Made by a program: the position numbers and the translations under genes
The notes under the pieces: model-generated
The model's database searches: none
Seen by the model: the letters and a program-made list of their open reading frames with translations, nothing else
What the model was told of the DNA's origin: nothing
Part shown: in pieces, positions 30,073 through 30,548 of the stretch
How the letters are laid out: every line of letters starts with the position of its first letter
How positions within the stretch are numbered: the first letter of the stretch is position 1
Origin: Escherichia phage EcF-vB
Direction: 5' to 3' (one strand)
DNA length: 64,000 nucleotides
Sequence record: PV683228.1

Positions 30073-30548
30073 TTACCTTATGGATTCTTTTTCAGCATCT
30101 TCATAAGTTTCTTTAGTGATAAACTTAATTGCTGCAATGTTGGCATTGTAGAAGAGTCTGAGCTTCGAGTCAATCCTTTTTGTCATTACATCGAACTTAT
30201 GTTGAAGGTTTGCTTCACCATAAACTAGACCACCTTTTGTGTAGTAGGTCTGAATAATGTAAAAGTCAAAAGACTCCTTTCCAAAGCTTTCAATATCTTT
30301 TTAATATACTCAGAAGAAGTCTCATAAGTCAACCAATCACTTTCCTTAGTGACTACCTTCTTCCGAGTCTTCCCAGCAACTTTTCTTTTTATCACACTGT
30401 TAAGCTGTTTCTTTCCGATATAATATTGTCCAGTCTTCTTACAGTGTACTAAATAGACAAAGCCAAAATGTTTAGTGGGGTCAACTTCCCCACATAAAGA
30501 TACCCAATGACCATAGGTGGGGCAATTGCCAAATCCTTTAATCTTCAT
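30073..30548 (-). CDS. GIY-YIG homing endonuclease, split by a -1 frame break
   Basis: FGFVYLVHCKKTGQYYIGKK (GIY...YIG); after EYIKK the ORF ends, but the -1 frame continues as a plausible coding sequence (ESFGKESFDFYIIQTY...) to a stop at 30073; one extra A in the A5 run near 30303 fuses them. Confidence 0.6.

Follow-up and report, generated by a model that had tools for sequence, protein, structure and literature searches.

The window analysed here, a stretch of 64,000 nucleotides from Escherichia phage EcF-vB (sequence record PV683228.1), contains on its minus strand a gene for a small GIY-YIG nuclease whose reading frame is broken in the record. It is very probable that this is a conserved nuclease gene of the Ounavirinae, intact in the real phage, where it would read through as a single 165-codon open reading frame (ORF), and that its breaks are due to under-calling of bases in the sequence record. 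The pattern of the changes points to such under-called bases, and not to mutation or recoding, as their cause. The gene is already known, being annotated in many GenBank records. An original prediction, made from the letters of the window, had described it as an endonuclease gene interrupted by a frame break; the break was found, but it belongs to a set of about ten single-base deletions window-wide, mostly in homopolymers, and not an interruption specific to this gene.

The 3.5 kb around the GIY-YIG gene match 258 phage records at 80-99% identity, with at least 80% of this locus covered in 242 of them. Nearly all of these records belong to Felixounavirus, the Felix O1-like myoviruses of Escherichia, Salmonella, Shigella and Citrobacter, and a 24-kb query returned the same picture. 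Phage mio is the closest record to the 3.5-kb locus (97.9%), and no record is identical to it. Judged by nucleotide identity, the window is a Felixounavirus genome (Felix O1-like, Ounavirinae).

Frame breaks at the locus and across the window

As written, the ORF that holds the GIY-YIG motif VYLVHCKKTGQYYIGKK spans 30225..30548 on the minus strand, with an ATG at 30548 and a stop at 30225, and encodes 107 residues; its GIY-YIG stretch reads GFVYLVHCKKTGQYYIGKK. The motif had been noticed in the original prediction. About 84 N-terminal residues of this product are genuine (to ...SEYIKK), and the residues that follow are out of frame according to three-frame translation and the frames of tblastn matches, in agreement with what had been suggested for the 3' end. 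Past ...SEYIKK the original frame decays to ILKALERSLLTFTLFRPTTQKVV*. The -1 frame opens there as KDIESFGKESFDFYIIQTYYTKGGLVYGEANLQHKFDVM... and runs on to a stop at 30073, reading in full KDIESFGKESFDFYIIQTYYTKGGLVYGEANLQHKFDVMTKRIDSKLRLFYNANIAAIKFITKETYEDAEKESIR*.

The first frame break lies at 30298..30302 (minus strand), where the window has an A5 run in the mRNA sense (T5 on the plus strand). Relatives mostly have A6 at this position; in two of the 11 relatives aligned at the locus for frame comparison C-A6 is found where the window has T-A5, and all 11 have one extra base. Adding one A fuses both frames, as had been proposed for the A5 run near 30303, and that A is present in every aligned relative, which goes far beyond chance. 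The same gene has a second break, overlooked in the original prediction, at 30088..30092 (minus strand; A5 here, A6 in relatives), which swaps the conserved C-terminus ...EKRIHKVMKANCA for ...EKESIR. This second deletion puts even the stop at 30073 out of frame; the -1 frame had rightly been taken for protein, but the true stop is a TGA at 30053-30055. The full gene thus occupies 30053..30548 on the minus strand, with 496 nt here against 498 nt and 165 codons in relatives. With both As restored it encodes 165 residues ending in ...EKRIHKVMKANCA, of which 163 are identical to those of phage mio gp51.

Phages mio, Alf5, tootiki and UAB_Phi87 annotate a 498-nt, 165-codon coding sequence at this locus, flanked by the exonuclease gene and by a small hypothetical gene that adjoins a MazG-like gene. 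The Felixounavirus orthologs (mio gp51, QIG66601.1; Alf5, YP_009288290.1; UAB_Phi87, YP_009150139.1; PHROG 447) share this location between exonuclease and MazG-like genes together with an 11-nt overlap; the window copy differs from them in being one A short in two A6 runs and, as written, in yielding a 107-residue product and orphan frames. The 165-codon ORF is unbroken in all 11 relatives. In a DNA alignment with three relatives, the window differs by exactly three one-base gaps over 3.5 kb, at about 30702, 30303 and 30093, where each A6 run of the relatives is an A5 run in the window, and the three deletions fall within 610 bp.

The third of these gaps, likewise missed in the original prediction, affects the neighbouring 5'-3' exonuclease gene (30538..31577, minus strand; 346 residues once repaired, stop at 30538-30540). 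Its frame break lies at 30697..30701 (minus strand), with A5 here and AAAAAA or AAGAAA/AAGAAG in relatives. As written, the exonuclease has 311 residues and ends prematurely in ...AKKSLTPMCHGMDRLLPKHH*, and its conserved C-terminal 53 residues sit in the -1 frame; the repaired protein ends in ...AKKESYTYVSWDGQ...CMNED, like its relatives. The GIY-YIG gene, which had been said to adjoin the exonuclease gene, was found to overlap it: the two ORFs share 11 nt, the GIY-YIG start codon (30548) being located within that of the exonuclease, and the same overlap is seen in relatives.

Independent sequences were compared at the three sites by BLAST, using 66-nt queries carrying the A5 state of the window. 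Among the 102, 212 and 34 records matched (212 being those for 30088-30092), none reached at least 99% identity, and all matches shown span 67 nt in the record. An A6 version of the query for the first break gave matches of 100%. A pattern scan of the A5/A6 site in IMG/VR returned two contigs, both A6, a number too small for a census. Six public contigs encode exactly the MazG-like protein of the window; in all five that were retrieved (ENA, Logan metagenome assemblies) the called genes encode an exonuclease of 346 residues and a PF19835 protein of 165 residues. These five contigs and the two from IMG/VR, one of whose loci stops short of the exonuclease site, have the extra base at each of the three sites that they reach. 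In several of them the exonuclease site reads AAGAAA or AAGAAG, so that it is the reading frame that is conserved there and not the homopolymer. An exact look-up of the truncated 107-residue product found it on record nowhere in public assemblies, and therefore no independent assembly has the same break.

The deletions are not confined to this locus. The window was scanned against mio and UAB_Phi87 for isolated single-base gaps in well-aligned sequence, and the two relatives concur on eight deletions in conserved coding sequences, with no single-base insertion found in these. The scan recovered the GIY-YIG and exonuclease deletions (30087, 30297 and 30696) and placed the others in the genes for the i-spanin (7959, C4 to C3), NAMPT (17973, T6 to T5), nrdD (24238, T5 to T4), DNA polymerase (38398, G lost in AAAAGAG) and DNA ligase (41828, T3 to T2). 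A further deletion, in a small ORF (3342), is seen against mio at a site outside UAB_Phi87 coverage. Single-base deletions split 8-9 of 74 conserved genes; in a test for matches in more than one frame 7 of the 74 comparable genes were counted, nrdD losing its first 8 codons only and so escaping the count. Searches with mio proteins by tblastn located the frame switch at residue 325 of 906 in the DNA polymerase (99.7% and 98.8% identity either side), residue 60 of 366 in the ligase (100% and 99.7%) and residue 80 of 593 in NAMPT, and found nrdA, nrdB, primase/helicase, rIIA and ThyA unbroken. Identity between the window and mio is about 87-100% on each side of the breaks in DNA polymerase, ligase, nrdD, NAMPT, i-spanin and the small ORF.

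Compared with mio, the repaired frames downstream of the breaks show 192 synonymous and 30 non-synonymous differences over 2339 codons, and the stretches upstream of the breaks show 54 and 7; the GIY-YIG gene has no difference in the 82 codons downstream of its break. The synonymous excess downstream implies that those frames stayed in translation for as long as these phages have been diverging and, by these counts, the repaired frames downstream of each break are under purifying selection. This leaves either events of extremely recent date or record errors, and errors are far more likely because some ten deletions occur with no insertions, homopolymers are preferred and essential genes are hit. 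It is not credible that a lytic phage would have its DNA polymerase, ligase and exonuclease all broken.

The GIY-YIG protein and its family

The repaired protein matches Pfam PF19835 (SegE_GIY-YIG) with 97.5 bits (E=8.6e-28; gathering cut-off 25) over residues 21-138 of its 165; on the profile side, positions 10-123 of 123 are covered. A profile search without GIY-YIG similarity would have refuted the original prediction, and such similarity was found. On its own, the N-terminal ORF reaches 58.6 bits (E=9.4e-16), and the -1-frame segment therefore contributes about 39 bits of genuine domain signal. PF19835 is the sole Pfam match of the repaired protein at E<=1, and no NCBIfam model matches near its cut-off. 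Among the PHROGs, 447 ('NAD synthetase') is matched with E=4.9e-47, and the homing-endonuclease PHROGs 7363, 314 and 7168 are matched through the N-terminal nuclease part only (positions 4-115 of 356 for PHROG 7363). All 19 database homologs contain PF19835.

The motif pair consists of V31-Y32-L33 and Y43-I44-G45, separated by a 9-residue spacer. Across 17 homologs with identity down to about 47%, H14, W15, G29, F30, Y32, Y43, G45, K46 and K47 are invariant, as are E112, N114, H117, R131 and N135 among others, and R62 is nearly so. A GIY-YIG alpha/beta fold is likewise supported, and membership in the superfamily is well supported. The protein is predicted to be a metal-dependent DNA endonuclease with a GIY-YIG active site in which, by analogy with I-TevI, Y32, Y43, R62, E112 and N135 would take catalytic roles. 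About 27 residues lie beyond the domain, with one predicted helix (150-165), and no separate DNA-binding domain was found in the repaired protein with Pfam, PHROG or predicted secondary structure. A profile search of PDB sequences gave unrelated proteins at best (E=0.22-0.29).

The protein shares with T4 SegE and the other seg products the catalytic superfamily, the Pfam family PF19835 and a phage origin. SegE, of 205 residues, has an N-terminal GIY-YIG domain followed by about 120 residues for DNA binding, whereas in the Felixounavirus protein the N-terminus is extended by 28 residues, about 19 residues are inserted after YIG and there is almost no C-terminal region. SegE itself matches PF19835 weakly (36.5 bits), and pairwise similarity between the two proteins is not significant (E=0.28). 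The catalytic domain of I-TevI (PDB 1LN0/1MK0) has 12% sequence identity to the window protein and a motif spacer of 10-11 residues instead of 9; I-TevI is intron-encoded and has a 75-residue linker and a DNA-binding domain (PMC2988022), which the window protein is without. T4 endonuclease II (DenA, PDB 2WSH) is likewise a small phage protein that is essentially a GIY-YIG domain alone. DenA serves the phage and not a mobile element.

Database labels for the gene are inconsistent and vary with the annotator between 'GIY-YIG homing endonuclease', 'NAD synthetase' and 'hypothetical protein'. The label 'NAD synthetase' was rejected, as the protein has no NAD synthase domain and Pfam gives PF19835 only; it appears to be inherited from earlier records. 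Homologs occur in over 800 phage records, about 400 of them from Synechococcus/Prochlorococcus cyanophages, and many sampled cyanomyovirus homologs also bear the label (e.g. KJ019080, NC_015285, GU071103), which looks like propagated misannotation. A literature search found no functional study of any member of this GIY-YIG family and no paper on Felix O1 phages with GIY-YIG; a Felixounavirus comparative paper and the Moogle announcement treat homing endonucleases in general terms only.

Weighing the explanations

Under-calling would have dropped one A from each of the A6 runs at 30298-30302, 30088-30092 and 30697-30701, and these three breaks would be part of the window-wide set that also splits the DNA polymerase, ligase, nrdD, NAMPT and spanin genes. 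The deletions might instead be real and the gene a pseudogene, inactivated through homopolymer slippage in replication. The break does stand in the record, A6 runs are naturally prone to slippage and a non-essential nuclease could be lost without killing the phage. We nonetheless consider this improbable: deletions of the same type split DNA polymerase, ligase, nrdD, NAMPT and exonuclease, which makes propagation implausible for a lytic phage, the frames beyond the breaks are nearly devoid of non-synonymous change, the 11 relatives are all intact and the 107-residue product is in no public assembly. It is exceedingly improbable that the full-length protein arises by -1 ribosomal frameshifting or transcriptional slippage at A_AAG/A_AAA, whether programmed or compensatory, an event that would be expected to give the trans-frame peptide ...SEYIKKDIESFGK... 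In the incoming frame, ..U AAA AAG.. does occur at two of the three sites, where a -1 shift is required, and all three breaks shift in one direction. A_AAG is a recognised minimal -1 shift site in E. coli owing to its single tRNA-Lys (PMC5009743), and the incoming-frame sites AUU AAA AAG and GCU AAA AAG contain this minimum and lack the full A_AAA_AAG heptamer. Bare A_AAG sites are known mainly from synthetic constructs or incidental natural cases (PMC5009743), and a low yield would be expected from them. Programmed frameshifting was rejected: programmed sites are conserved, yet the relatives examined all use one reading frame for this gene and have an additional base at each site, and other deletions fall at non-slippery sequences, namely CTC-TTGAA in the ligase and AAAA-AG with the G lost in the polymerase. 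A combined version, in which a viable phage truly has the deletions and makes full-length GIY-YIG nuclease and exonuclease by low-level -1 slippage at A_AAG, so that both adjacent nuclease genes are throttled, is very improbable.

A separate question is whether the gene is mobile. That it is a bona fide free-standing GIY-YIG homing endonuclease of the T4 seg type, swept to fixation and still cutting relatives that lack the gene, is rather unlikely. Such a reading draws on the SegE_GIY-YIG match and the three homing-endonuclease PHROGs, on I-TevI as the closest structural match, on the label used in many GenBank records and on the sporadic homing endonuclease genes that Felix O1-like phages carry (in UAB_Phi87 nrdD, and HNH genes in Moogle, Mordin, Sf14 and bumzen). 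The homing endonucleases of T4 join a catalytic module of about 90 residues to a long, sequence-reading DNA-binding domain, free-standing phage GIY-YIG homing endonucleases lie between genes, and the endonuclease load of T4 is itself unusual among T-even-like phages (PMC2988022). The protein studied here has no such domain, the matches to PF19835 and PHROG 7363 being limited to its nuclease part, its pairwise similarity to SegE is insignificant, and its gene overlaps the upstream gene with no intergenic gap. Homing endonuclease genes, including the seg genes, are patchily distributed among close relatives. This gene, unlike the T4 seg genes, is fixed in its lineage: a homolog of at least 60% identity occurs in about 296 records against 303 with the exonuclease gene, and the gene was found at all 11 loci examined, so that the patchy presence and absence expected of a mobile gene is not seen. 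Its identity tracks phylogeny, declining from 95-99% in Felixounavirus to about 85% (Moogle, Sf15), about 62% (Erwinia phages) and 51% (Pectobacterium phage Arno162), and its synonymous to non-synonymous differences stand at about 5:1; the gene is under purifying selection.

We conclude from these sequence comparisons that the protein would work as a GIY-YIG nuclease, as the PF19835 domain predicts, but that its gene has the behaviour of a core replication-module gene, because it is without a DNA-binding domain, overlaps the exonuclease gene and occupies the same locus throughout the subfamily. Of the original name 'homing endonuclease', the nuclease part stands and the homing part is doubtful. 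The start codon within the last exonuclease codons suggests co-expression with the replication module. A nuclease domain alone, fixation in the lineage and purifying selection together suggest that the nuclease serves the phage in DNA replication, recombination or degradation rather than being a selfish element that actively homes. It is possible that a once-mobile endonuclease has become fixed here, and the conserved bare GIY-YIG protein of the Ounavirinae and many cyanomyoviruses may be a domesticated nuclease acting in replication or in inter-phage competition.

Several points weigh against the reading of an intact nuclease gene with under-called bases. The artefact is deduced from a pattern in the sequence and a real mutation at any single site is possible, since homopolymers invite true slippage no less than sequencing errors. 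Of the four T6-to-T5 changes, three are clustered within 610 bp, and this cluster fits the artefact model only by assuming a locally weak stretch of assembly. On the protein side, Foldseek found nothing significant in the PDB, and R62/E112/N135 were mapped to I-TevI R27/E75/N90 by order and spacing only.

For users of the record the consequence is one of quality control: the deletions falsely truncate genes, DNA polymerase and ligase among them, and claims of pseudogenes, split genes or recoding drawn from it should first be checked against relatives. For the biology of these phages, a small GIY-YIG nuclease lies beside the exonuclease throughout the Felix O1-like group and has cyanophage homologs, and this conserved protein looks like a core nuclease, not a mobile element.

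Other features of the window

Sporadic endonuclease genes are found elsewhere in the group. In UAB_Phi87, nrdD (16491-19377) is annotated in two pieces around the homing endonuclease gene Phi87_77, whereas nrdD in the window (about 22123-24260) and in mio has no inserted endonuclease gene; the gene that splits nrdD in UAB_Phi87 is truly sporadic within the same genus. In Moogle, Mordin, Sf14 and bumzen, HNH genes adjoin the exonuclease gene.

The original prediction had also named an HNH endonuclease-like gene at 19155-19688, directly downstream of prs. This ORF (minus strand, 177 residues) has no Pfam HNH match at E<=0.1 and only a weak match to the HNH PHROG 2214 (E=6e-5, residues 59-140); its main match is PHROG 3500, of unknown function (E=3.7e-92), and it is conserved as mio gp35 and UAB_Phi87 gp69. 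It does adjoin prs in the window, because the small gene mio_34, which lies between the two in mio, is absent here. The ORF at 19740-20060 (minus strand), a homolog of a 'putative HNH homing endonuclease' of mio, matches DUF7390 only. Since both ORFs are conserved in relatives, neither HNH label is well founded.

A 2.2-kb segment at 9865-11904 (minus strand), flanked by the genes for lysin and rIIB, is missing from both mio and UAB_Phi87. It contains three ORFs of 86, 279 and 299 residues, the 299-residue product having an NPPF motif and a Pfam N6_Mtase match of 24.3 bits (cut-off 20.4), and by these features the segment resembles an accessory cassette for a DNA adenine methyltransferase. An intergenic element of about 80-100 bp occurs in many copies among the small early genes at about 250-5300, TTGAATCTCC(T)AGTTTA(A)GGA ... 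GGGGA(A)GGTCATTCCCTCCCGTTGATT, with cross-matching BLAST hits to several positions in mio; these elements are probably repeated promoter/terminator units.
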